From positions 13,392,001-13,456,000 of the forward strand of contig OX597820.1 in assembly GCA_951406725.2 (NCBI GenBank): 64,000 nt of DNA, written 5' to 3'. The notes under the pieces were generated by a model. That model was not told the origin of the DNA. It made no database searches and was given only the letters and a program-made list of their open reading frames with translations. This document shows, piece by piece, positions 11,041-61,915 of the stretch (the stretch's first letter is position 1; every line of letters starts with the position of its first letter). The DNA comes from Octopus vulgaris (taxonomy: Eukaryota). Both the position numbers and the translations under genes were made by a program.

Positions 11041-11120
11041 CCTCTCATAGTAGTTACAATTATATGTCTAGTATAATATAGTTGATGTTACCATCATTAA
11101 TATTAGTTTAGTAAGAAGAC

Positions 11121-11875
11121 CGCGAGCTGGCAGAATCGTGACGCCGGCGAAATGCTTAGCGGTATTTCGTCAGCCGCTGCGTTGTGAGTTCAAATTCCGC
11201 CGAGGTTGACTTTGCCTTTCATCCTTTCGGGGTCGATTAAATAAGTATCAGTTACCCACTGGGGTCGATATAGTCGACTTATTCCGTTTGTCTGTCCTTG
11301 TCTGTCCTCTCTGTGTTTAGCCCCTTATGGGTAGTAAAGAAATAGGTATTTCGTCTGCCGCTACGTTCTGAGTTCAAATTCCGCAGAGGTCGAGTTTGCT
11401 TTCATCCTTTCGTGGTCGATAAATTAAGTACCAGTTACGCACTGGGGTTGATGTAATCGACTTAATCCGTCTGTCTGTCCTTCTTTGTATCCTCTGTGTT
11501 TAGCCCCTTGTGGGTAGTAAAGAAATAGGTATTTCGTCTGCCACTACGTTCTGAGTTCAAACTCCGCCGAGGTCAACCCTTGCCTTTCATCCTTTCGGGG
11601 TCAATAAATTAATTACCAGTTACGCACTGGGGTTGATGTAATCGACTTAATCCGTTTGTCTGTCCTTGTTTGTCCCCTCTGTGTTTAGCCGCTTGTGGGT
11701 AGTAAAGAAATAGGTATTTCGTCTGTCTTTACGTTCTGAGTTCAAATTCCGCCGAGGTCGAGTTTGCTTTCATCCTTTCGGGGTCGATAAATTAAGTACT
11801 AGTTGAGTACTGGGGTCAATCTAGTCGACTGACCCCCTCCCCAAAAACTTCGGGCCTTGTGCCTAGAGTAGAATT
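11121..11875 (+). mobile_element. SINE-B nested array: one head, three ~185-bp B2 units, then the remainder of a B1 element
   Basis: Units join as ...gtaaagaaata|ggtatttcgtctg. The final unit ends in the B1 tail ggccttgtgcctagagtagaa. Flanking direct repeat aatattagttta at 11099-11110 and 11877-11888. Confidence 0.85.
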
Positions 11876-11890
11876 GAATATTAGTTTATT

Positions 11891-26970: not shown

Positions 26971-27548
26971 AAAGGTCGACTTTGCCTTTCATCATTTCAG
27001 GGTTGATAAATTAAGTACCAGTTGTCTACTGCGGTCGATCTAATCGACTGGCCTCTCCCCAAAAATTTCGGGCCTTGTGCCTAGATTAGAACAGAATATC
27101 TAAAAGCGCCAGTGATAAATGCAGCAAGATTAACTGTAATGCATCATTGTTGTGAAGAAATACAAGATTATTTCAACGAGGATCCAGAAGTTCTATTAGT
27201 TAGGAAAGAAAAGTGGACAGAGTGTATTACGGCATAAGTCGTTGTTTAGCTCATAGTCAACTCTTTTTGCTGTTCAACCGTTGAAAACGGACGAATTATT
27301 TCCCGTCTTGCGAAGTTTCTGAATTCTTATGACGACAACAACGTTCATTTCTCGCTAGTAAGAACTAAGTTTCTAAAATAGATGGAGAAGTTAGGTGAAT
27401 TACTTTGGTCCAATGGTAGTTCATCTGTCATATTTATGGAAACTGTGGTGCGAATCCCACGATCAACCTTCGGGTTTTTTTACTTTTTCCTATCCAGAAG
27501 TGGGGTTTCTTAAAACAATAGTTACACGCTATTATTTATAGCTTTATA

Positions 27549-27930
27549 AGGCTGTGAGCTGGCAGAAACGGTAGCACGCCGGACGAAATGCTTAGCAGTA
27601 TTGCGCCTGCCGCTACGTTCTGAGTTCAAATTCCGCCGAGGTCGACTTTACCTTTCATCCTTTCGGGGTCGATAAATTAAGTACCAGTTACGCACTGGAG
27701 TCGATGTAATCGACTTAATCCCTTTGTCTGTCTTTGTTTGTCCCCTCTATGTTTAGCCTCTTGTGGGCAATAAAGAATGAAGTATTTCGTCTGTCTTTAC
27801 GTTCTGAGTTCAACTTCCGCCTTTCGTCCTTTCGGGGTCGATAAATTAAGTACCAGTTGCATATTGGGATCGATGTAATCGACTGGCCCCCTTCCCAAAC
27901 ATTTCGGCCCTTGTGCCTAGAGTAGAAAAG
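27549..27930 (+). mobile_element. SINE-B dimer (head, B2 unit, B1 remainder) with 14-bp TSD
   Basis: Junction taaagaatga|agtatttcgtctgtctttacg. Flanking direct repeat attatttatagctt at 27531-27544 and 27931-27944. Confidence 0.85.
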
Positions 27931-28994
27931 ATTATTTATAGCTTAAAACTATATATACATGAGAAATATTTTTGAGTTTGAAAATGAGTCTGGGCCTTAA
28001 AATGAATTGTAGCTTTTAATTATTATTTTTTTGCAAATTTATCAAAATACCATACCGGTTTCAACAATTTGCTGTAAGCGTAATTAAGAAAAAAACACGA
28101 TAGAACTTTGATCACAATGAACAAATCATATGTGCAGGTTATCCAGCAAGAAATTTACACAACCGTCTTTCTGAGACTTTAGGTAACTGCCGTCATTGGA
28201 TTACACTGGAGAAAACGATACACATTGTGCTTGATGCAAGAAGCTTTTCTTTCCATCGGGTATCATTACAAACAAACAAAAAACATTTTTGTTAAAAGTG
28301 AAAAATCCGTACATCCTTTGAAATCGCATTCCAGGACATATTCCAAAACGGGGAAAAGACATTAGAAGCATTGTAACAACAGGGCAGAGAAATATTTTGA
28401 AAACACAAGTCATGTTTTGGATTTTTCAAAACAGGTTATAGTTTCTTTCTTTTAAATTAAATATCGTTTATATATTCATAGATACACAGCGGGATGGCTT
28501 AAGTATGTGCCGCCTGGGGAAGCACTTGAGTTTCCCTCCTATGGATTATAAAACCGTCCCAAATGTGCCGCCACAATAAACGTGTCTCCCTGGGCAGGCT
28601 GTCCACTCTACACTCTCTCTAACTTCATTATTGTACATATGTACATATAAGTGTGCATGCACATGTATATACTTATATATATACATATATACATATACAC
28701 ACACAAATATGCATACATACATAAACATACACGTATAAACATACATACATACATACCTACACACACAAACACGCACACACACACACATGCACACATAAAT
28801 ACATACATACATACATACACGCATACACACATACATACACACACACACATACACACATAAATACATACATACATGCATACATACATACATACATATATAC
28901 ATACATACATACACACATACACGCATAAGTTAAAGCTGAACTTCCTTTAAGGAATACTTCAATCTATTCCTTTCTCTTTGATTTAGGCATGCTT

Positions 28995-37775: not shown

Positions 37776-38694
37776 ATCCATTAGAGAAAAGCTTAATTAC
37801 TACAAATAAAGCCTGGTAAATATTTTGCTCAATTAATAACTAAAAGATGAATTGATCCAAATAATTTTCCTTCTATTTATATTTTCGTTTGTGATATTTG
37901 AGTGCTACATATACAGTATTTTATCTTTAAAGCCACTCTTTGCCAACTACTCTGTGGTACATTGGTTGTTTTTGTTTTTTTTTACTTTTTGATATATAGT
38001 GTGAAATCTTCTACCACCATTAATCTAATCTGTATGCATGATGTATAATCTGCTGCTTGACTCGACACACACAGGCTGGCAGTTTATGTGTTGCTGATTC
38101 TTATCTGTGAAATTTTAATAAAGAATTTGATCACGTTGTTTTAATAGTGATTAAGATAACAAGTTAGATTGCTTACGTATGTTAAGCGTTGATAGTTACA
38201 CAGATGTCTAGCTACATCTGCCGTTGGTAACGCGATGGACTTATGACATAACACTCAACACCCTGTCTGCATAACACCGCAAAATTAATCAATATGTCTG
38301 CAGTAGTGTGTTTCGTTTCTCTAGCAAAACGTTATCTGCGATTAACCAGCATCCTTTCTAGCTCTCATAATATTTAACACTCACGCTGTTTTGCATGGTT
38401 ACTCAATCCTCTGTTGGACTTGCCTTCGTGGACTTGCCTTCCTACCCGTCTTTTTTTTCTTCTTCCACAAGTTGTTCCTTTACGAATATTCCAGCCGAAC
38501 ATCAATCTCAGCAGTCTTAGAGGCCTGTTAATGTCTTGAGTGATTTCTCTCTCTCTGCTTTCTAATTAAATATTTAAAGGGGGGAAAAGATGGAGAAACT
38601 AAAGTAGGCATTGAACTCTGTTGATTCTTGGGATTCAAGAAACGATTAAGCTTTCTAAGGACCATTTTGGTAAACGGTATACTTGTAGGAGCAT

Positions 38695-38955
38695 AAGGCG
38701 GTAAGCTGGCAGAAACGTTAGCACGCCGGGCGAAATGCTTAGCAGTATTTCGTCTGCCGCTACGTCTGCCGCTACGTTGTGGTTAGTGAAGAAATAGGTA
38801 TTTCGTCTGCCGTTACGTTCTGAGCTCAAATCACGCCGAGGTCGACTTTGCATTTCATCCTTTCAGGGTCGATTAAATAAGTATTAGACTTAATCCGTTT
38901 GTCTGTCTTTGTTTGTCCTTTCTGTGTTTATTCCTTTGTGGGTAGTAAAGAGAAA
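38695..38955 (+). mobile_element. SINE-B2 with full head and 15-bp TSD
   Basis: TSD ggtatacttgtagga at 38676-38690 and 38956-38970. Contains a collapsed internal unit (...gtgaagaaata|ggtatttcg). Confidence 0.85.
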
Positions 38956-39113
38956 GGTATACTTGTAGGATCATGACTATCATTTAATATTAATGGTGTA
39001 GATGTGGCCTCTTCTGTTATTATGACATTACACGCATTAATATTCTATAGGAATATCAATAGATAGGCATATCTATCTATCTACCTACCTACTAATCTAT
39101 ATATTTATCTATG

Positions 39114-39965
39114 TTTCTTTATTACCCACAAGGGGCTAAACATAGAGGGGACAAACAGGGACAGACAAACGGATTAAGTCGATTACATCGACCCCAGTGC
39201 GTAACTGGTACTTAAGTTAACGACCCCGAAAGGATGAAAGGCAAAGTCGACCTCGGCGGAATTTGAACTCAGAACGTAACGTCAGACGAAATAACTAATC
39301 TATATTTTTATCTATTGATATATATGTATATATATATATATTTCTTTACTGCCCACAAGAGGCTAAACATAGAGGGGACAAACAAGGACAGACAAAGGGA
39401 TTAAGATGATTACATCGACTTCAGTGCGAAACTGGTACTTTATTTATCGACCCCGAAAGGATGAAAGGCAAAGTCGACCTCGGCGGAATTTGAACCCAGA
39501 ACGTAACGGCAGACGAAATAACTAATCTATATATTTATCTATTGATATATATGTATATATATATATATATTTCTTTACTGCCCACAAGAGGCTAAACATA
39601 GAGGGGACAAACAAGGACAGACAAAGGGAATAATCGATTACATCGACCCAGTACTTAACTGGTACTTAATTTATCGACCCCGAAAGGATGAAAGGCAAAG
39701 TCGACCTCGGCGGAATTTGAACTCAGAACGTAACGGCAGACGAAATAACTAATCTATATATTTATCTATTGATATATATATATTATTTATTTTTTACCCA
39801 CAAGAGGCTAAACATAGAGGGGACAAACAAGGACAGACAAAGGGATTAAGATGATTACATCGACTTCAGTGCGAAACTGGTACTTTATTTATCGACCCCG
39901 AAAGGATGAAAGACAAAGTCGACCTCGGTGGAATTTGAACTCAGAACGTAACGGCAGACGAAATA
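39114..39965 (-). mobile_element. Four head-less SINE-B2 units separated by copies of flanking genomic sequence
   Basis: Units at ~39114-39293, 39341-39520, 39570-39747 and 39790-39965, each followed on the plus strand by actaatctata. Confidence 0.9.
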
Positions 39966-39978
39966 ACTAATCTATATT

Positions 39979-40594
39979 ATTTCTTTATTACCCACTAGGG
40001 GCGACACAGAGGTGGACACCAAAAGACATGGGGACATAGAACATTTATAATTAAAATTTATGAAAAATGAATTGTTAAGTGAAAGAAAATGATATTATGA
40101 AAGCGATACCAACGGCCCCATACTCATCCATATTTTCCACGAATTCATCGCTCATTCTTATATCTTTCACCTCCCACTTCTCCCTTTCACACCTCACCAC
40201 AAACTCATCTATGTTCTTCTTTTCAATCACAGCATACCTAGTCTCACCAACTTCATACCTTGTTGGGGGGGGAGCGGGTGGGTTCAATGTCTGCATGGAT
40301 AGGGTGGGACTCAGAGGGTGTGGGTGGTTTTGGGGTAGATTGGTGTTCCATGTTATTTTCTTTTTTTTCTCGCATTCTTCTCTTCCTCTTATTTCCAACT
40401 TCCTTCCATTTCTGTGTATTCTCTTCCTCTTCTACTGTCTCCTTCTCCTCTGGTTTCTGCTTCTCTCTCTCTGGTTCGGAATCCATTTCTTTCCACAGCC
40501 GCCACAATCCACTCTGCCTCCACGTTTGGTGGCACTCCCTCCACCCTTATTCGTGTAATCCTTCTGTTTAAATACGTAGGTAACAGTGTTACAT
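39979..40594 (-). mobile_element. 5'-truncated 3' end of a retroelement with the shared Tx1-type tail, probably ORF1-only class
   Basis: Lys/Glu-rich ORF remnant (40075-40507), short UTR, tail gtccacctctgtgtcgcccctagtgggtaataaagaa. No ORF2 motifs. Confidence 0.65.
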
Positions 40595-43724: not shown

Positions 43725-43893
43725 TATTTCTTTACTACTCACAAGGGGCTAAACACAGAAAGGACAGACGGATTAAGTAGATTATATCGACTCCATTGCG
43801 TAACTGGTACTTATTTAATCGACCCCGAAAGGATGAAAGGCAAAGTCGACCTCGGCGGAATTGGTACTCAGAACGTAACGGCAGACGAAATAC
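43725..43893 (-). mobile_element. Head-less SINE-B2 unit fused directly behind a LINE 3' end
   Basis: Minus strand reads LINE ...gggcaataaagaaattc|gtatttcgtctgccgttacg...gtagtaaagaaata. Confidence 0.85.
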
Positions 43894-46425
43894 GAATTTC
43901 TTTATTGCCCACCGAGGGCCAAACATAGAAATGGACAGAATAACTGACGGGATCAGTGAAGCGATATGATTTTACATATAATGTGACTTCAAAAGTTTAG
44001 ATACAATATATAAAAATCGAATGGAATTAACAATACAAAAACAATACAAATGAAGCGATGATCAGGCCATGCTCCGACCCCACAAGCCCTGATCTACCGC
44101 TGGTACCTTTTTTTTTTTTTTTTTTTTCATCTGTTCACACGGTTCCTTGCACGCACAACACTCGTTCAACATGCTTCCATCACATTTGGAACGTACACTC
44201 CGACAGACACCTCTTCTCCAGCCACAGCTTCCTTTTCAATTGAAAGGAAAAAAATGATCGTAAGCTGTGACCAGAGATAAAGTTGCCTGTCTTAATTCCT
44301 TTTATCCTAGTCTTCCAATACAGCCTCTTTTGCTATTGCTACAACCGTGAGAAAACAATTCTTACCTTCGTTCGTTAAAACACCCGATGGGTCAATTTTT
44401 ATAATTGACTCAGTCGAGAGCTGTACTCTTCCTTCGCCGGACAACAGGTGTTCAGCATAAGCCCACATTTCAGTTATCTCCGGACACTGAACAATAGCGT
44501 GAGGGACGGTTTCCCTGTCCCCCACACCCCGCATCTTGGACAGGTCGGAGACTGACGTTTACCATGTCTTGCGAGCTTATCTCAAACGGGCAAGGCACCT
44601 CTGTAGCATTGCCAGGTTAAGCACTTTTGGAAGTTGTCCAACGTTCTCAACCCGAATGTACGGTGAAACAGGCTGTCCAGTTGAATAAATGAGACCTAGA
44701 GTCGACCCCAGGCCATCGTTGCATTCAGACTCTACCAATCCACTATATAAAATCTGTGTAGCACCCCCACCGCTGGCGTTGCCCAAGCGCCGGAATAGCA
44801 AGAGGGCCCTACGGCACTTTTTATGCCATTCACTCGACCTCGGTCTACGAGAACACCAAGCTTCCTGTTCGCAAAAACTCTTGAACTCAGGGAACATTTG
44901 TCTGGCCAGCGGAGACCACACCCGTTCACTATCCAGGAGAATCCAGAGGTGCCTCAACGTCAACGCATGTCTGCGCATCATTAACCAAGGCATCCCTAAA
45001 CCTTCAAGGCTTTTGACAGCAGACCGAGCGTTTCACAAGTGGCGACCTGCCCTTCCACAAAACGCGAAAGTGCTGTCTCTCCAACCTGATCATCCGCGTA
45101 AGCCGTAACAAACTCCTGTAGACCTGGTTCTCTCGGGATGCCACTCAACCTTCGCTGTAAAGGCTCGAGAGCCATAATGTACAAAAGTGGTGAGAGCGGA
45201 CATCCTTGACGAACCGAGCATCTGATGCAGAATGGCTTCGAAAGCAAACCGTTCACCCGAACTATCGAGTCAATGTTGTGGTACAAAGCGATAAACACCT
45301 GAGGAAGCCAAGGCCCAGGCCAAACCGCGCAAGCACAGTCGTCAGGTATCGATGGTCAATCCTATCAAAGGCTTCAGACTGTTCCAAATGTACCAATGCC
45401 CCACTTTTGCCAGATTTATTACCAACCCTCTCTATGGTATAGTGAATAAGATGGAGGGTATCTTGAATGGTTCTGCCTGGGCTGGCACATGTCTGTGCCT
45501 CCCTGACTATACTATTCGCGACACGCCCCAACCTTTTTGCTAAGACCTTGGCCAAAATCTTCACTTCTGCGTGATGGGCCTGAAATTCTCTATAACGTCC
45601 CCCTTGTCCGGGTCCTTTCTGACCAACGTCACTACTCCCCGGCGCACAGATATGGGGATAAACCCATTCTGTTGCCAGTTCGCGTACACGTCAGCCAGTA
45701 GTTGTCCGAACAAATCTGGCATTTATTTATTCAGCTCGTACGGAAGACCATCAAGTCCCGGCGACTTACCCACTTTACAGTCGGCCAAAGCCTCCATCAC
45801 TTCCCCAGGCGTGATTGGATCTTCGCAAGACTCCGCATTCGACCCCGAGAGGCACGGCAGCCCGGCAAGAAAGTCTTCGAGGGCTCTCCCACCAACAGGA
45901 CAGCCGTCACCCCCGAACAGCTGGGCGAAGTACTCTCGAAAGGCCTCACATATTTTCTAGGGTTCGTTTACCAAGACACCATTTTGATTCGTCAAAGACC
46001 GAATAGAGGAACTATTTCCTTGCCGAGCTTCCACCACTCGGGCCCATCCAGCGGCCTTGATTCCTTCACTTCCCATTGCACGTAACTTAGCTCTGGCAAT
46101 ACTCCCCATGTATTGGGCTTCGAGATGCTGGTTTAACTCCAGTCCTTTCACCCTCGCTTGGTCCGTATTACCAGTCCTCCAGGCTTCTTCTAGTTCCCTA
46201 ACTAGACCATCTCATATTCTACGTCCCGTCTTAGCTAAACTTATGCTAAACCTAATAGGCTCATATTTGATGGCTCTTTTTAGGGCGTACCACCATTTGT
46301 TATTAATGATGGTACCTGTTAATGCCCGCTGTATTAACATCTTGATCTGCTTTCAGTACTCCTCAATCGCCAAAAGGGACGTGTTGTTTCCAGTAGCCAG
46401 ATCCCTGACTATGCAACTTATCTAC
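43894..46425 (-). mobile_element. 5'-truncated L1/Tx1-clade LINE, degenerate ORF2 (post-endonuclease region, RT, zinc finger)
   Basis: GYWK(x)NTSLL-like motif near 46390, KILAKVLAKRL, EAFDRIDH, RQGCPLSPLLY, YADD, ETVPHAIVQC. Many frameshifts and a deletion after YADD. Confidence 0.9.
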
Positions 46426-46502: not shown

Positions 46503-47981
46503 AATTCTTTATTATCCATTAAGGACTATACATAGATGGGGACGGTACAATCAGGGAACATAAAATAACAAAAGAGGATGAATAAAGACGAAGAAATTAA
46601 AAAAAGAATGAATTATAAGATATTAAAATGAGTCGCAATGCCCACTCGATCCCCGAAATGGAGTGGTTACATTTTGTCAGTTTTTCCCTTAATTGATTTT
46701 ATCAAAGATTATCAATTTCACAATTACAACTGAAGTTCGCAAAAATTACAAAAAAATAAATTTCACAAACATAGTTTTTCGGTACTTTTTCATAAATTTC
46801 GTAGATAGTCTATTTTTCTTTTCAACTCCTCGTCCATTACGAGATGTGGGTGATCCATCAACCGACACCTCTTGTCTTCTATTATATTCTTTTTGGCGAC
46901 CTCGATGAAATTGGCGTAACTGTCCTCGTGGACTAAAGCACCAATATCATCTTCGTCATACTTGGTTCCCAACCTAATCCATGTTACTCCCTTCATTCTC
47001 CATACTTTTATCTTTATTTCATAGGAGCTCCTGAAAATTACAAATGCTCCATAAAATTTAAACATAAAATTTGAACCTGTGTTTTCCACTGAGTGTTCCC
47101 TTTTCTTCGATGTTTTCCTACTTTTGGGACTAGTTGCTCCTTTATTTTCCTCTTTTGGCTTTTCCCTTTCTTTGTTTTCTTTTTCTTTCAGTGTACTGCT
47201 TTTTCCTAACTTTTTTCCTTCTTTCTCTTGTCTCTGTTCTTTCTTTTGCTCTTTTTCTGTTTCTTTGCTTTGTGTAAATTCATATAATGGACACTCCCTC
47301 CTTATATGTCCTCTTGTTCCACACAGGTAACAATTGGGTCTCATTTCTTCAATGTTTATTGTCGGTTCGTTTTCCACTTCAATCTGGTAGGGGATTCTCT
47401 CTATGCCTTCTGTTGTGGCCATAAGCCACATCTCGACACCGAATCCCCTCCAGTTCACTGTATTAGTTTCGGTAACTGAACCCAGTTCGGATTCGTCTTT
47501 TGTAGACCCTAGAATCGCTGTCACCAGCCATTCTGTTTTTATTTCCGGCGGTATGCTCGGAATCTTAATCTTTATACCTCTTCTTCCCTTATAAGCGGGT
47601 AACATTGTAAACCTTTCTGTTCTTAAGATAGCGGTGGATAGCGAGGCCGCCTCTTCACTTGTGGCAAACCTCACCTCCACCATACCGAACTTTTCCCTCT
47701 GCTGACGTATTTTGCTCTTTCCATTACGTCTCGGAGACACTTTTCTATTTCTTCTCCTGGTATCCATACTATTTTCTTTGAGTTCATATCTTGTCTTGTA
47801 TACAATTGTTTTACTGCACTTCTCTTCTGTTGTTTCTGCTGGAGGGATCAGCTTGATGCTTTCACCCTCCCTTTTTACATACTGTTCACATCTCTGTATT
47901 TCATCTATCTCAATTGTTACATTTCTTTTTACTAGTGGCGCGCCACTTTTTGCGGCAACCCTCGCATAGGGCTCCATGCAG
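46503..47981 (-). mobile_element. ORF1-only retroelement with the shared Tx1-type tail
   Basis: ORF1 stop at 46790, ~290-bp UTR, then tail gtccccatctatgtatagtccttaatggataataaagaa. No ORF2 between the stop and the tail. Confidence 0.8.
46790..47977 (-). CDS. Tx1-type ORF1 protein (~395 aa; RRM-like region, CCHC zinc knuckle, Lys/Glu-rich region)
   Basis: Open frame starting MEPYARVAA, with VEVRFATSEEA, IPPEIKTEWL, NWRGFG and RPNCYLCGTRGHIRREC. Confidence 0.7.
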   Translation of the reverse strand: MEPYARVAAKSGAPLVKRNVTIEIDEIQRCEQYVKREGESIKLIPPAETTEEKCSKTIVYKTRYELKENSMDTRRRNRKVSPRRNGKSKIRQQREKFGMVEVRFATSEEAASLSTAILRTERFTMLPAYKGRRGIKIKIPSIPPEIKTEWLVTAILGSTKDESELGSVTETNTVNWRGFGVEMWLMATTEGIERIPYQIEVENEPTINIEEMRPNCYLCGTRGHIRRECPLYEFTQSKETEKEQKKEQRQEKEGKKLGKSSTLKEKENKEREKPKEENKGATSPKSRKTSKKREHSVENTGSNFMFKFYGAFVIFRSSYEIKIKVWRMKGVTWIRLGTKYDEDDIGALVHEDSYANFIEVAKKNIIEDKRCRLMDHPHLVMDEELKRKIDYLRNL

Positions 47982-50144
47982 TATTTCTTTATTGCCCACA
48001 AGGGGCCAACATAGAGGGGGACAGCACAACATGATTTGGGGTCATTTTAAAAACAATGATGAACAACATTAAAATGCTAATGAAAATACGATAAAAATTT
48101 ACAAAAAATCGAATGTTACACTTTTTACACAACAAACACCAAAAGAGACATGAAGTGGGGGAAAAAACAGGATTGCCGACCCCGCGAGCCCTGTTTTTCC
48201 CACTGAAACTTGGCAGCTGACTTACGGCGTGTTCATGTAGTAACTTTCACCCTCAGCAATCGTGCGACACGCTTCCATCTTTTTTGGAACTAGCATACTG
48301 ACAGACACCTTTTCTCTAGCTCCGCCTTTCTTTTTAGGTGGAACCTAAAAAAGTTCACCAAGGCGGGGCCAGAGATCATGATGTCTGTCTTTATACCTTT
48401 CGTTCTGGTTTTCCATATACTCTCTTTCGCTACTGCCACTATGATGAGAAAGCAATGCTTACCTTCGTTTGTCAAAAAACTAGGCGAGTCAATTTTTAGA
48501 ATTGTCTCAGCCGATAGCTGTACTCTTCTTCCGTCTGACAGCAGGTGTTCTGCATAAACCCACACGTCTGAAATTTCCGGACACTGAACAATAGCGTGCA
48601 GGACTGTTTCCACATCCTGCCCGCATCTTGGACAGTCCGATGGTCCAACGTGACCATGTCTTGTAAGCTTATCCCGAACGGGTAAGGCTCCTCTGTAACA
48701 TTGCCAGGCCAAAGACTTCTGAAAGTTATCCAGCGTCCTCGGCCCGAATGTCCTTTGGAACAGGCTGTCTAACTGATTATTGTCGAGACCCAAGGTCCTT
48801 CCTAGGGCATCGTCATTTCCGGCCTCTACCAACCTACTATAAAAAGCTGCAGTGGTACCAAAGCCGCTAAAAACACATTGGCCACCTCCGCCCTCTCTTT
48901 CAAGGATAGCCACCGCCAAGACCAAGTCCTGACCGCGTGAGCCACCTTGCTCGTCACCTCAGACCAGTTCTTTTCTATCTGGAGATCTGGACCAAACCAG
49001 ATCCCTAGTAGTTTAACCGGGCCCTCCGTCCAGCATCCCACGATGCTATTCGAAGGCATCGACTTGCCCCTCCAGGCGCCGAGTTGCAAGCCGACTGACT
49101 TTTCCCGATTAATCTTTGCTCCTGTCCCCGTCTCGTAAGCCTTGATGGTATCTCCCACATTCTGTAGGAGTTCCACCTTGGTCACGATGATGATGTCGTC
49201 CGCATACGATGTCACAGATCCTCCACCTCCTGGATTCGTCGGGATGGCGCTCAGCTTTCGCAGTAATGGCTCGAGAGCCATCACATATAAAAGCGGGGAG
49301 AGCGGACACCCTTGACGAACCGACCGTTTGATGCGGAACTGCTTCGAGAGGAAGCCATTCACTCGAATGATCGAGTCGATGTTGTCGTACAACTGTATGA
49401 TCCACCTGAGAAAACCAATGCCCAGACCGAACTGTGCCAGCACAGAAACCAGGTACCGATGGTTCACCCTATCGAAAGCTTTACTCTGGTATAAATGGAC
49501 CAGTGCCCCACCTTTGCCAGAGTTATTCCCGCACCCTTCTACGGTGTAACATATAAGGTGAAGATTATCCTGAATAGTTCTTCCGGGGACTGCGCAAGTT
49601 TGTGCCTCCCCGATCAGACTATCTGCAACACGCGTCAACCTTTTCGCTAACACCTTGGCCAAAATCTTCACCTCTGCGTTCAGTAGGGTGATGGGCCTAA
49701 AGTTATCTATTCTGTCCCCCTTGTCCGGGTCCTTCCTGATCAGCGTCACCACTCCCCGGCGTACAGATCTTGATTCCAGTTCGCGAATACGCTGGCCAGT
49801 ACAGGCCCGAACAAGTCTGGCATACTTTTATATAGTTCGTAGGGTAAACCATCAATTCCCGGAGCCTTACCTCTGCCACAGTCGGTTATGGCGTCAGGTG
49901 TGATTGACCCTCCACAGCTCTCCGCATCCTGTCCCGAGAGGCGCGGCAGCCCGGCAAGGAGGTCCGTAAGGTCCACCCTCTCCTCCGGTCCACCATCAAC
50001 CCCGAAAAGCTGGGCGAAGTGCTCCTGAAAAGTCCAACACATCTCCTCGGGTTCGTTTACCAAATCGCCCTTTTCGTTCGTCACAGACTTAATTGTGGAA
50101 TCGTTTCCACGTTGAGCTTCTACAACTCGTGCCCATCCGGCAGT
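47982..50144 (-). mobile_element. 5'-truncated L1/Tx1-clade LINE, ORF2 RT plus zinc finger (related to but distinct from 43894-46425)
   Basis: KAPGIDGLPYELY, NFRPITLLNAEVKILAK, KAFDRVNH, RQGCPLSPLLY, YADD, KLLGIW, CPRCGQDVETVLHAIVQC. Tail gtccccctctatgttggccccttgtgggcaataaagaaata. Confidence 0.92.
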
Positions 50145-50147
50145 GAA

Positions 50148-50540
50148 ATTTCGCCCGCCTTTACGTTCTGAGTTCAAATTCCACCGAGGTCGACCGAACC
50201 TTTCATTCTTTCTGGATCGATAGAATAAGTACCAACTAAATACTTGGGTTGATGTAATCGACTTACCTCTCCTTCGAACTTACTGGCCTTCTGCCAAAAT
50301 TTGAAGCCAATATTCAGGGGATGATTAAGGCGGTGGGCAGACAGAATCGTTAGAACTCAGGCAAAAATGCTTAGCGGTATTTTGTCCATCTTTTCGTTCT
50401 GAGTTCAAATAGCCCCGAGGTCAACCGAACACTTCATCTTTTCGGAGTCGATTAAACGTGTATCAGTTGAACACTGGGGTCGATGTAATCGACAAGAATC
50501 CGCCCCGAAATTTCTGGCCTCGTGCCAAAATATGAAATCG
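50148..50540 (+). mobile_element. Two tandem SINE-B1 copies; the first lacks its head upstream of atttcg
   Basis: First copy begins atttcgcccgcctttacgttctgagttcaaattcc. The second, with head, starts near 50328. Confidence 0.75.
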
Positions 50541-58034: not shown

Positions 58035-58569
58035 ATTTCTTTAGTCCTATCTGCAATTTATCTCTTTCGGCAAAAACAAACACTACAGCTTTCTTAAGCA
58101 AAACGTCCATCTAAACGTATGGAAATGAATTAAGCATCAATTTCCACACAACTTTTGCACACGTAATTACAATAATGAAATCTTCAAATTTGATAAAAAG
58201 AAATATTACTTTAAGTCGCTTCCAGCTCATAGCTCTTACCTACGAGGAAGCCGCGACAAGATCATTCAATATACTAAAAATAGCTGGTACGTTTTTGATC
58301 GTATGTCTGCTTGATCATTATCATTACTGGCCTGGGGCTAAATAACAGCAATCTATATTGTATCTACAACTAAAGATTCCTTTTATCTCTACAAGGCTAC
58401 AAATCTCTAACGAAGGTTAGAATCAATTGGATCGACGTAAACCTGCGCCGAGCGGTTGTTTTTATGTCTTGCTAAGATTTGAACCTAAAACGTAAAAAGG
58501 CGGAACTAAATCACTTAGCAAGTACGTAAGCAAACATGTCACCTCATATACCATATGTGAATAGATTCG

Positions 58570-59195
58570 TTTCTACTCTAGGAACAAGGCCCAAAATTTT
58601 TTTGGGGGGGGGGAGTCGATTAGATCGACCCCAGTACGTAACTGGTGCTTATTTAATCGACTCCGAAAGGATGAAAAGCAAAGTCGACCTCGGAGGAATT
58701 TGAACTCAGAACGTAAAGACAAACGAATAACGCTAAGCATTACGCCCGGCGTGCTAACGTTTCTGCCGGCTCGCCGCCTTTCAAATATTCTTTTTCTACT
58801 CTAGGCACAAGGCCCGAATTTTTTTTTGGCTGGGGGCAGTCCATTAAATCGACCCCAGTACGTAACTGGTGCTTATTTAATCGACTCCGAAAGGATGAAA
58901 AGCAAAGTTGACCTCGGAGGAATTTGAACTCAGAACGTAAAGACAAACGAATAACGCTAAGCATTACGCCCGGCGTGCTAACGTTTCTGCCGGCTCGCCG
59001 CCTTTCAAATATTCTTTTTCTACTCTAGGCACAAGGCCCGAATTTTTTTTTGGCTGGGGGCAGTCCATTAAATCGATCCCAGTGGGCAACTGGTACTTAA
59101 TTTATCGACCCCGAAAGGATGAAAAGCAAAGTCGACCTCGGAGGAATTTGAACTCAGAACGTAACGGCAGACGAAATACCGCTAAGCATTTCGCA
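58570..59195 (-). mobile_element. Three tandem SINE-B1 copies; the rightmost head is interrupted by a retroelement 3' end
   Basis: Near-identical duplicated unit of about 225 bp. Minus-strand junction ...gtgggaaataaaaaattt|gcgaaatgcttagcggtatttcg. Confidence 0.85.
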
Positions 59196-60097
59196 AATTT
59201 TTTATTTCCCACAAGGGGACAACAAAAAGGGAACAGTACAACCTGATATGGGTCAGATTTCACGCATGAATTAACACAGAGGAATTTTAAAATTTTACAT
59301 ATATATGAATCGTTCGATTTTAGTGTTTCAAGGTTTATATTGTCTATTTGTATTATCATATTTCCTTCAGGAAGTTTTGTATAATGTCCTGTGAAGATTT
59401 CTGATGTAGGAATATCTTAAATTCTAGATGTTAATTGTTCGTTCGTAGCGTTTATTGCCACTCATAGTAATTTGTTTTGCCATATTTTTTTTCCGGCACT
59501 GGAGGGTAGGAATGATTTTACTGGGCTGAACGGAGGGGATTACGTGGGGATGGATATCGGAACTGGAGGATGGAGATTGGAGGGGTGAAATATCAGGGCT
59601 GAGTGGGAGGTTATCAGGGTTGGAAGGAGGGGATATTGATGTTTTGCGGGGTGGGGAGGGGTAGTTTGAGTTTCGTGTGAGTCTGTTGAGGGAGCTCTTT
59701 TCTTGTTCGAGCTGGATGCTGAGGGGTGGGATTTGGCTTCTTCCTTTTGGTTAATTTCTTCCTTTTTACCGTAGACCATCCGTCTTCACTCCCAGCTGGT
59801 TGAGTGTTTTCATTGCTGGGAGCCTACTGATCGGTCTTCTGTGTCTGTCTCTTCTGCGCCCTTTTTTGGGGGAGCCGTCTCCGCCTTACGGGTAGAACAG
59901 TTTGCCCGAATGTGGCCTTTCTCTCCACATCCAAAGCACCAGGGTCTTCTCCCCTCCACCATTACGCGTAAGGTGGTTTCTTCTCCGAGGTGTATGTTTT
60001 CTACGATCATTTCCAGGGCCTGTGGCGCCACTTGGATAATGACGTCGAGGCCTTCCCTTTCCAGTTCTGCTGGTGTATTTTGAGGCCTCTAATATCG
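59196..60097 (-). mobile_element. 5'-truncated ORF1-only element with the shared Tx1-type tail
   Basis: QNWKG..GLDVIIQ, VEGRRPWCFGCGEKGHIRANC, Pro/Ser-rich C-terminus, tail gttccctttttgttgtccccttgtgggaaataaaaa. Confidence 0.8.
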
Positions 60098-61915
60098 TTA
60101 TTTATTCTATTCATATTAGTAGGGCTTAGAATAGCCATAATACGTTTATTTCTGGCAGGATCTCCAATAACATATGATAAACATTAAATTTTATACATTA
60201 TAACACTGAGGATTTTCAACCTCTTGTCACTATTCCTCAACATTGCTTGTGCCCGTATACTCGGCCATCACCCACGCCTCATTCAAGACCAAGACGGCCA
60301 CAAGCAATATTCCTCATTGAGTCCCTGCAGCCTGTGCATCACGGGCGGCGTTATGACCTCCACAGCTATCTGTGGAGCCCATTCGGGTTCCCGTCTGAAG
60401 GTTAAAAGTACTCCCTTGTGGTACTTTTCCACCACCTTTTCTACTTCTCCAACTCTGTAGAAGGCCAATAATTCGTCTTCCTCCGGGGTCGAGGTAGTCA
60501 ATTCTACCATTGGCGGCACAATTCTTTCCAACGGTGTCTCTTCCCCTGCCGGTGGCACAACCCCTACAGGCGAGGTTCCGGGAAACTCCGGTGCTCTATC
60601 AGCGACTGCCGACAATGTCCCGTTTCTCTTCCTCTTTTTCTTAACTGAGGGAAGGTGCGTCTCCTCCATGACCGGGAGATTCGCCTCCCCTCCCTCATTC
60701 CTAGGATCCTTCGGTGGGCACCCATTGTTACTCACCTTCTTCCTCTTACTTCTTTGAGGAGTCCTCCGTCTCCTCAGCTCCAGGACTTTGCTTTGTTCCT
60801 GAGAACAGTTTTTTTTATGGCCAGGCTCCAATGACACCTGGAGGAGGGGCGACCCTCAAGAATCACCGGGTATCTGCACCTGATCATTTTCAAAAAACCT
60901 GGCATAACCAAATTCATGGCTGATTGTTTCCATAGGGTCAAAACAGCTTTTGACCCAGCCCAATTAGCCACAGGAAATATCTTCACATTGAGGAGCCTGG
61001 CTCCGCTTCCACTCAGACCCCGACGGATAGTATCCCCTATCCACTCAGGTTCAATTCCGGGTGGCAAACCACAGACCCAAGCCCTCGTCAACTTTTCCCA
61101 CCGTAAGTGGGAAGAAACAAAATTTCTCTACCCTCAAAGGGCTGGCTGGCAAAAGTGCGAGCCTCCTCTGGGGTGTCAAATAGCAACCACACGGTTGCAT
61201 ATTTGACACCCCTAGAGAAATACTTAATGGTTGGCAGATGTTCCGTCAACTCCTGCTCAATCAGCTGACTGGAGAAGCCGGCAATGGAGTCGAGAACCTT
61301 CGAATACGTTCTCAACACCACCGTCCTCTCCTCTTGCTGTCTGAGCCACTCCGTAGGTGGGACAATCTCCCACTCTACAATCTTATCCGTATTGTTTGCC
61401 ATGTTTTAAATTAAAAAGTAAAAAAGCCCGAAACAATAGTTCACAAATTTCAAAAAGAAAAGAGAAATCAAACGGAAACAAAAGGGAAGAAGAGAAAAGC
61501 AAACAGTTCAATAAAAAAAGTGACAAAAGAAGTAAACAACAGTTCAACAAAACACAGCAAAAAAATCTTCTGGGCATTCGGGTACTCCAAGCCGTGTGGT
61601 ACTCCGATTAGAACTTGGACTGCTCCACTTGAAATGCAGCTTTCCAATTATTGGTAAACGTTGTTGTAAAAACACTATTCACAAAAAGTGAACAACTTTT
61701 GGGGGCAGGATATGCCTCCTAACTATACATCTCACAGTGAGAAAAAAATTGTTACTTAATGTGAACAATATTGCTGAACTGCAAGCAGACTAATGTCCTG
61801 AATCCAGAGAGGACTCCTGGTTTGTAAAAAAATATTACCACAGACACAACCCCCACTGGACCCAAGAAACAAAGGCCTTACCTTGCAGCAGCTACATTTT
61901 CGCCGGCTAAACACC
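60098..61915 (-). mobile_element. Apparently complete ORF1-only element, homologue of 31666-33766
   Basis: ORF from 61402 reads MANNTDKIVEWEIVPPTEWLRQQEERTVVLRTYSKVL versus MAIKNGATALEWEIVPPNQWLKDMEERTVVVRTYSKVL. Shared KRKKVSNNGCPPKDP. AATAAA at 60101-60106 on the minus strand. Confidence 0.8.

Follow-up and report, generated by a model that had tools for sequence, protein, structure and literature searches.

A SINE of Octopus vulgaris that inserts in place into heads of its own family, at a site shared with a LINE

Results

A nested SINE array and its neighbours

The window, a 64,000-nucleotide stretch of Octopus vulgaris DNA (GCA_951406725.2, contig OX597820.1, positions 13,392,001 to 13,456,000), carries copies of SINE-B, a short, interspersed, high-copy family with target site duplications (TSDs) mostly of 11-22 bp. 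The labels SINE-B, B1 and B2 are taken from an earlier note on this DNA; B1a and B1b denote the two non-B2 tail types, B2y the younger B2 with a GGGTA tail, B2o the older B2 with a GGGCA tail, and LINE-S and LINE-N the two LINE families in the window that share the SINE tail. On the forward strand, positions 11121-11876 are made up of a single SINE head, then three B2 units, each of 183-185 bp, and lastly a B1a unit. The left TSD copy, AATATTAGTTTA (11099-11110), is exact over 12 bp, or 17 bp with one mismatch (to 11115), and recurs exactly at 11877-11888. The head (11121-11160) contains two small deletions and, at 11128, the A-box-like TGGCAGAATCG. The insertion site, GCTTAGC^GGTATTTCG (the caret marks the point of insertion), falls between 11160 and 11161, within the head hairpin (11146-11171). 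RNAfold pairs GGCGAAATGCT with GGTATTTCGTC around the loop TAGC, which places the site at the boundary of loop and 3' arm, as the earlier note had proposed. Judged by its A/B-box-like layout alone, the head is putatively derived from a tRNA; the motifs were picked by eye against the box consensus, and ARAGORN and Rfam gave no match.

All four units begin at GGTATTTCG (11161, 11345, 11528 and 11713), and the junction AAAGAAATA^GGTATTTCG is found at 11336, 11519 and 11704. Unit 1 (11161-11344) comprises a body with a B-box-like motif at 11186 and a LINE-like tail, unit 3 (11528-11712) is a B2 unit, and unit 4 (11713-11876), a headless B1a unit, is the presumed body and tail of the host. The description of a TSD-flanked, B1-ended element split at gcttagc^ggtatttcg by three B2 units therefore agrees with the anatomy and the exact TSD. 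The motif GTCTGCC(G/A)CTACG, which had been offered as diagnostic of B2, is present in units 2 and 3, with GTCTGTCTTTACG in unit 4 and the B2-like GTCAGCCGCTGCG, with two changes, in unit 1; it marks a tendency only, since the B2 motif is also found in some B1a-tailed copies, and vice versa. The units of the array are identical at 99-107 of 118 positions. Because unit 2 (11345-11527) has two rare variants (GAGTTTG-CTTTC) in common with unit 4, the three B2 units need not represent three independent insertions, and the array is probably a record of both insertion and local exchange.

Two further composites lie on the forward strand. At 27531-27944 a head, an older-type B2 and a B1a unit are enclosed in a 14-bp TSD (ATTATTTATAGCTT, at 27531 and 27931); the same B2-then-B1 junction had been claimed here at about 27780, and the composite and its TSD are indeed present, but the junction is degenerate (AAAGAATGAAGTATTTCG) and the tail is of the older GGGCAAT type. 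At 38676-38970, in unique DNA, a B2-B2 composite with an internal deletion in its first unit has the predicted junction at 38797 and a 15-bp TSD (GGTATACTTGTAGGA, at 38676 and 38956) that begins with GGTAT. Two tandem arrays were seen on the reverse strand. Four headless B2 units starting TATTTCG, downstream of a LINE-type tail (39114-40018), are each separated by (TA)n and a repeated unique spacer, forming a locally duplicated array that includes its flank. A LINE-type tail precedes three B1a copies in tandem (58565-61375), to which it is joined at CGAAATGC, a position that lies 13 nt upstream from the main site, and the one open reading frame scanned in the element upstream of them gave no reverse transcriptase (RT) match.

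The window also holds two LINE copies, both on the reverse strand. A decayed copy of the site-specific family, LINE-S (43896-46052), retains an RT remnant, the 3' UTR and the shared tail, and ends at CGTATTTCG of a B2 body (43725-43895). A copy of its sister family, which shows no preference for that site, LINE-N (47982-50147), has RVT_1 and zf-RVT domains and a similar tail. Between the LINE-N tail and the LINE-S ORF2 there is a 418-aa open frame with a zinc knuckle (46790-48046, reverse strand; E 6.6e-5), probably the LINE-S ORF1 with LINE-N inserted at its start.

Many B2 tails run into SINE bodies at one site

Pattern counts refer to the whole 2.8-Gb genome; loci L071-100, L131-200, L224-263 and L368-437 were taken from the first ~35 Mb of contig C1, and overlapping loci (7-22 per script) were removed before counting. 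The 27-mer tail of B2 has 71,328 exact matches, with AGGT next in 45,629, and a shorter tail pattern followed by SINE body sequence gave 28,756 exact junctions, against 0 for the reversed control pattern. Exact B2 tails at loci not selected by their flank (n=89) continue into a SINE body at GGTATT in 48 cases, at other positions in 3 and into other DNA in 38. The excess of tail-to-body junctions is far beyond chance, and the enrichment of the ggtatttcg-type site downstream of B2 tails that the earlier note had put forward as a check is borne out. Arrays make up 46 of the 73 sampled B2 loci, and 24 of those arrays end in a non-B2y unit; the array parser forces non-terminal units to be B2, and B2 identity there was not counted as evidence. 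After B1a tails, GGTATTT was found at 0 of 30 loci.

Other positions in SINE-B are used as well. A second hotspot in the head, GGC^AGAAACG, lies inside the A-box-like motif (L127, L204, L205, L187, L197, L199); it takes 14 of the 29 SINE junctions of older B2 tails, is also reached by LINE tails with a different type of 3' UTR, and possibly belongs to a second site-specific family. B2 copies in antisense orientation interrupt the SINE-B core at AACT^GGTACTT, which nearly matches GGTAT (L143, L170, L320, L417). At L303-L305, and among hits on C11 of the control 11-mer described below, tandem repeats of head plus body end in CCTTT and have a period of ~117-121 bp; they form a second SINE-derived repeat unit, which may stem from early Pol III termination.

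Double-head loci record insertion in place

Landing of a full-length B2 in a SINE head should read as host head, TSD and second head. This pattern has 243 exact matches genome-wide. In all 29 distinct loci sampled, the first tail after the second head is that of B2, and in 25 of them the TSD starts with GGTATTT, its downstream copy matching at 9 or more of 11 bases. Several of these TSDs contain duplicated variants private to the host (e.g. L264, L287); a recognisable host head is scant in about 4 of the 29. As a control, an 11-mer taken from the SINE body was matched 64 times, with many of the matches in tandem runs; three of the ten viewed are long host duplications in which the 3' junction is still GGTATTT. 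The in-place nested insertions have TSDs of 10-20 bp. These loci show that B2 inserts in place into SINE heads at GCTTAGC^GGTATTT and confirm the proposal that it targets its own family.

LINE-S uses the same site and LINE-N does not

LINE-S and LINE-N are about 73% identical in DNA and have the tail in common, and the last 48 nt of B2 are 0.76-0.82 identical to the tails of both. LINE-S copies were found by the 3' UTR at 43896-44090. Their 3' ends (n=30) enter a SINE body at the site in 24 cases and lead into GGTATT(T/G)CGTC plus another element in 3, into non-SINE GGTAT in 2 and elsewhere in 1. In two LINE-N samples, of 29 and 23 loci (12 overlapping, 40 distinct), no copy ended at the site (p=3e-11 against LINE-S), and 3 of the 40 run into the head at AGAAACG. 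For comparison, SINE-B sites account for 17 of the 651 GGTAT sites in an evenly spaced 400 kb sample. If a LINE is called target-specific when >20% of its flanks are of one type (PMC4494074), LINE-S qualifies (24/30) and LINE-N, for the main site, does not (0/40). Of the two LINE families with the shared tail, LINE-S thus uses the site and its sister does not, and the independent 3' junctions, at which a lack of enrichment had been named as the sign against self-targeting, are enriched for the site.

The 5' sides of 20 LINE-S copies, read by eye, show a SINE head or unit in 9, an inverted SINE in 2 and no SINE in 7; two were left unclassed, one at a non-SINE site and one with an uncertain 5' boundary. 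At L345 the head upstream has the sequence CCGTATTTCG, and that C is retained in the 3' junction. The copies with no SINE, or an inverted one, on their 5' side suggest that read-through units also move. Among LINEs more generally, 5' ends abutting an inverted SINE-B near the hairpin (L339, L348 and position 50148 of the window) suggest inversion or template switching at the head. Two more observations concern LINE tails: at L315, L332 and L334 the LINE-S tail and target motif are followed by the 5' end of another element (GTGTG(G/A)GTTGGAAG...), stacked at the site, and five LINE-N-type tails continue into similar (AG)TCTTT(G/C), seemingly one other repeat (L107, L109, L116, L124, L215), so that LINE-N, too, may have a preferred target.

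The named sequence closest to the window RT is a homologue from Argonauta hians (58% identity). The LINE-N frame carries RVT_1 and zf-RVT, homologues of ~1150 aa have PF03372+PF00078+PF13966, and one homologue, P0010, matches human L1 ORF2 best (E 9e-69; R2, E 5e-16). Endonuclease remnants are found in both families, and no intact LINE endonuclease ORF was found among 32 LINE loci. By this protein architecture, both families are placed in the L1/Tx1 group. The B2 tail is slightly nearer to LINE-N (0.80) than to LINE-S (0.76), and the assignment of LINE-S as the likely carrier of B2 therefore rests on their shared site, the argument also made for Tx1-Mar and SINEU (PMC4494074).

The motif pre-exists at targets in unique DNA

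B2 tails followed by GGTA in non-SINE DNA were collected (71 tails, of which 2 ran into SINE and 33 were without a resolved TSD), and TSDs were anchored on bases that follow GGTA. Of the 36 resolved loci, 30 have an upstream TSD copy with GGTA at its start, and therefore the motif, which these targets have in common with the SINE site, pre-existed there. Upstream of the cut, C at -1 is enriched (10/33 vs 10.8%, p=0.002), while T at -2, as in the RNA (4/33 vs 32%, p=0.014), G at -1 (p=0.02) and an AAATA-like context (p=0.048) are depleted, p-values drawn from 12 tests of which only that for -1 C survives correction. At 3 of 30 LINE-S junctions, the base at +1 is still the host's C or T. Together, the upstream context and the retained +1 bases favour a protein reading across the nick. 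A first reading, in which the LINE endonuclease was non-specific and RNA microhomology chose the targets, rested on LINE-N only and was overturned by LINE-S.

The targets also vary with the SINE subfamily. Older B2 (B2o) tails run into AGAA in 7 of 10 resolved TSDs, and copies of the G39 subfamily are followed by TA in 11 of 31 cases vs 1 of 66 (p=8e-6). At a few 3' junctions (L076, L137, L167) there is an extra GG(T), or longer SINE sequence, that is missing from the upstream TSD copy, and GGTAT alone predicts less use of the SINE site than is seen.

Composites do not form a single lineage

Terminal units of composites are of the B1a, B1b, B2o, B2y or truncated type. Divergence is greater in old-type last units than in first units (7.8% vs 3.4%, n=32, p=5.5e-5), and likewise in 20 composites chosen by their B1a tail (7.0% vs 4.4%). 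The last units form a star-like set with no close siblings (mean pairwise distance 0.13, minimum 0.054, n=20), and the ages of first and last units are uncorrelated (rho 0.03 and 0.09). By these measures the composites are not a single lineage: the single monophyletic B2/B1 subfamily that the earlier note had named as the outcome contrary to its reading was not found, and the monophyly, fixed unit order and equal ages of an Alu-like dimeric SINE are not seen.

A second head was flagged in 6 of 96 headed composites (about 6%), two of the flags (L153, L199) being doubtful. Position 39 of the head carries a B2-specific G in 12 of 39 B1a-ending composites, 8 of 23 free B2 of the GG class and 1 of 65 B1a monomers; because this allele is as common in composites as in free B2, the 3' part of the composite head appears to be mostly B2-derived. 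The divergence of the A-box half (composites 4.6%, free B2 2.6%, GG class 3.8%, B1a 6.4%) assigns the A box neither way, and a host-aged head, considered as a further sign, lost its significance when set beside free B2 of the GG class. That the inserted B2 inherits the A box of its host, as the earlier note had it, is consequently not supported as a rule; a putative promoter-bearing element results whichever head survives.

Rare alleles common to the last and an upstream unit are found in 9 of 39 composites vs 7% in the control, over about 55 nt at L178, and in first units the 5' body is more diverged than the 3' body (94/1711 vs 41/1364). The shared alleles indicate homology-based joining or later conversion, with variable crossover points. 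Of 39 B2-B1a composites, 23 are enclosed as a whole by a TSD, and B2 units are present in 23 of 66 well-preserved B1a copies. Mismatches between TSD copies (B2-B1a composites 21/352, free B2 25/483, B1a monomers 39/469) do not differ significantly, and TSD ageing gave no separation of in-place insertion from retroposition of whole units. Most arrays have 2-4 units, with 9-10 or more in L020 and L030. Neighbouring B2y units differ less than random pairs do (median 5.5% vs 7.7%, p=1e-4), and rare alleles are shared within 22 of 79 arrays vs 3.8% of random pairs. The clustering of units by array that had been suggested as a check is thus seen in part, and arrays also duplicate or homogenise locally.

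Discussion

B2, a young variant, is seen to insert in place at the GCTTAGC^GGTATTT of its own family, which is also the LINE-S site, and our findings make it probable that the machinery is that of LINE-S. The sequence-preferring endonuclease of this L1/Tx1-group family would make the cut, and its reverse transcriptase would copy the B2 RNA through the shared 3' tail. Since the B2 cDNA would be homologous to the host, the 5' junction might usually form by annealing, or the duplicated head might collapse later, in either case leaving one head; with second heads flagged in so few of the headed composites, we can only infer this seamless step. Each insertion would recreate tail^GGTATTTCG, so the site would stay reusable, and arrays could extend by further insertion together with local duplication or conversion, some of them probably being re-mobilised whole as read-through RNAs.

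The last of these routes could in principle account for much more. Most single-head composites might go back to composite RNAs made by read-through, or to switches of template between SINE RNAs, that were retroposed whole from many nested source loci. Such an origin would fit B2 alleles present in the head at the B2 frequency, TSDs round many B2-B1a composites that are not detectably older than those of free B2, copies of LINE-S plus SINE body without a host head, and the high hit rate that the B2 units in B1a copies would otherwise imply. We nevertheless consider it unlikely for the majority, in view of the 20 last units without siblings, the uncorrelated ages of first and last units, the rare alleles that link last and upstream units and the more diverged 5' body of first units; site-specific nesting would still be required as its starting point. 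Far less credible is the proposal that units stem from a processed RNA whose 5' end is fixed at GGUAUUUCG, or from a circular 184-nt template. Near-identical units in some arrays, and a mild cluster of about 7 among 195 B2-initiated elements that, by eye, are headless within 5 nt of the site and have a non-SINE flank, are what it would predict. Headless B2 at the site in unique DNA is thus rare and 164 of the 195 are headed, which makes this improbable as a main route, and it leaves the double-head TSDs, the LINE-S junctions, the pre-existing GGTA in unique DNA and the older terminal units unexplained.

A different question is whether enzyme or RNA picks the site. Read-through 3' ends of B2 and LINE-S would carry GGUAUUUCG, and their pairing with a loosely nicked target could select the site, the subfamily remembering the flank of its source. 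The tracking of target class with subfamily (B2o with AGAA, G39 with TA), the junctions with extra GG(T) or SINE sequence and the use of the SINE site above the GGTAT expectation all speak for such guidance, for which the annealing of AGG by SART1Bm and the need of R1Bm for downstream target sequence (PMC7265360) provide a precedent. As the selecting step, it is nonetheless quite unlikely, given that the upstream context in unique DNA is non-random and differs from the RNA end, that a host C or T at +1 is kept in some LINE-S junctions and that host-private TSD variants are duplicated and not overwritten; the subfamily classes could also result from different partner LINEs with different cuts. 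In our preferred reading, with the LINE-S-type endonuclease choosing the site, pairing of RNA and target may well act as a co-factor. It is tempting to speculate, although we hold it to be unlikely, that B2 is a self-homing SINE with a heritable memory of its target, whose family supplies the landing pad for its own carrier LINE, whose insertions each rebuild that pad and whose read-through flank helps to choose the next site, so that subfamilies would inherit GGTA, TATA or AGAA with no change in protein.

The system resembles that of the crocodilian Tx1-Mar LINEs and their SINEU passengers, in which LINE and likely mobilised SINE share a target in another repeat, the Mariner DNA transposon, and LINE families prefer different positions (Kojima 2015, PMC4494074). 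By this analogy the octopus system would work in the same way, with the twist that its target is the passenger's own family and not Mariner, so that inserts are homologous to their target and mostly seamless. In the same source, tandem SINEU-3 copies are ascribed to sequential insertion and keep full copies around the TSD, unlike the single-head arrays of the octopus. Other LINEs described there with multicopy targets are Tx1 in Tx1D, Keno in U2 snRNA genes and Kibi/Koshi in microsatellites; LINE-S, of the L1/Tx1 group, would likewise be a LINE with a sequence-preferring APE endonuclease and a multicopy target, and a SINE head is absent from the targets listed for them. Unequal recombination is invoked for the SINE-derived satellites found in squamates (PMC10702118) and for the TSD-(SINE)n-TSD arrays of Scapharca broughtonii (PMC11481361), which have partial SINE units and longer terminal units in common with the octopus arrays, together with local homogenisation, seen in a part of the octopus arrays. 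The octopus arrays are, by comparison with the cases described, dispersed and short, their unit has a complete LINE-like tail, and their breakpoint is a retrotransposon target site. The work on SART1Bm and R1Bm (PMC7265360) shows that a target-like RNA 3' end can sharpen the start of reverse transcription; those are autonomous R1-clade elements of telomeres and rDNA, and in the octopus pairing is only a possible co-factor. A repeat annotation of the octopus (PMC13282606) lists L1-Tx1 families, the word "nested" being absent from the portion of its text consulted, and the two supplement files seen of PMC4824008 gave no motif match to the SINE. In the literature covered, with subscription journals and Repbase reports outside its scope, no description was found of a LINE or SINE that targets the SINE's own head.

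SINEs normally scatter through the genome. B2 departs from this pattern, since 46 of 73 sampled loci are arrays built on a single head site within its own family. Composites of this kind inflate counts of SINE families and confuse the dating of insertions. LINE-S and LINE-N, the one site-specific and the other not, offer at ~73% DNA identity a natural pair for distinguishing the role of the APE endonuclease from that of pairing between RNA and target. Retrotransposition would be a route to SINE-derived tandem repeats besides unequal recombination, and a LINE that targets its own passenger would provide both elements with a growing, likely harmless landing pad.
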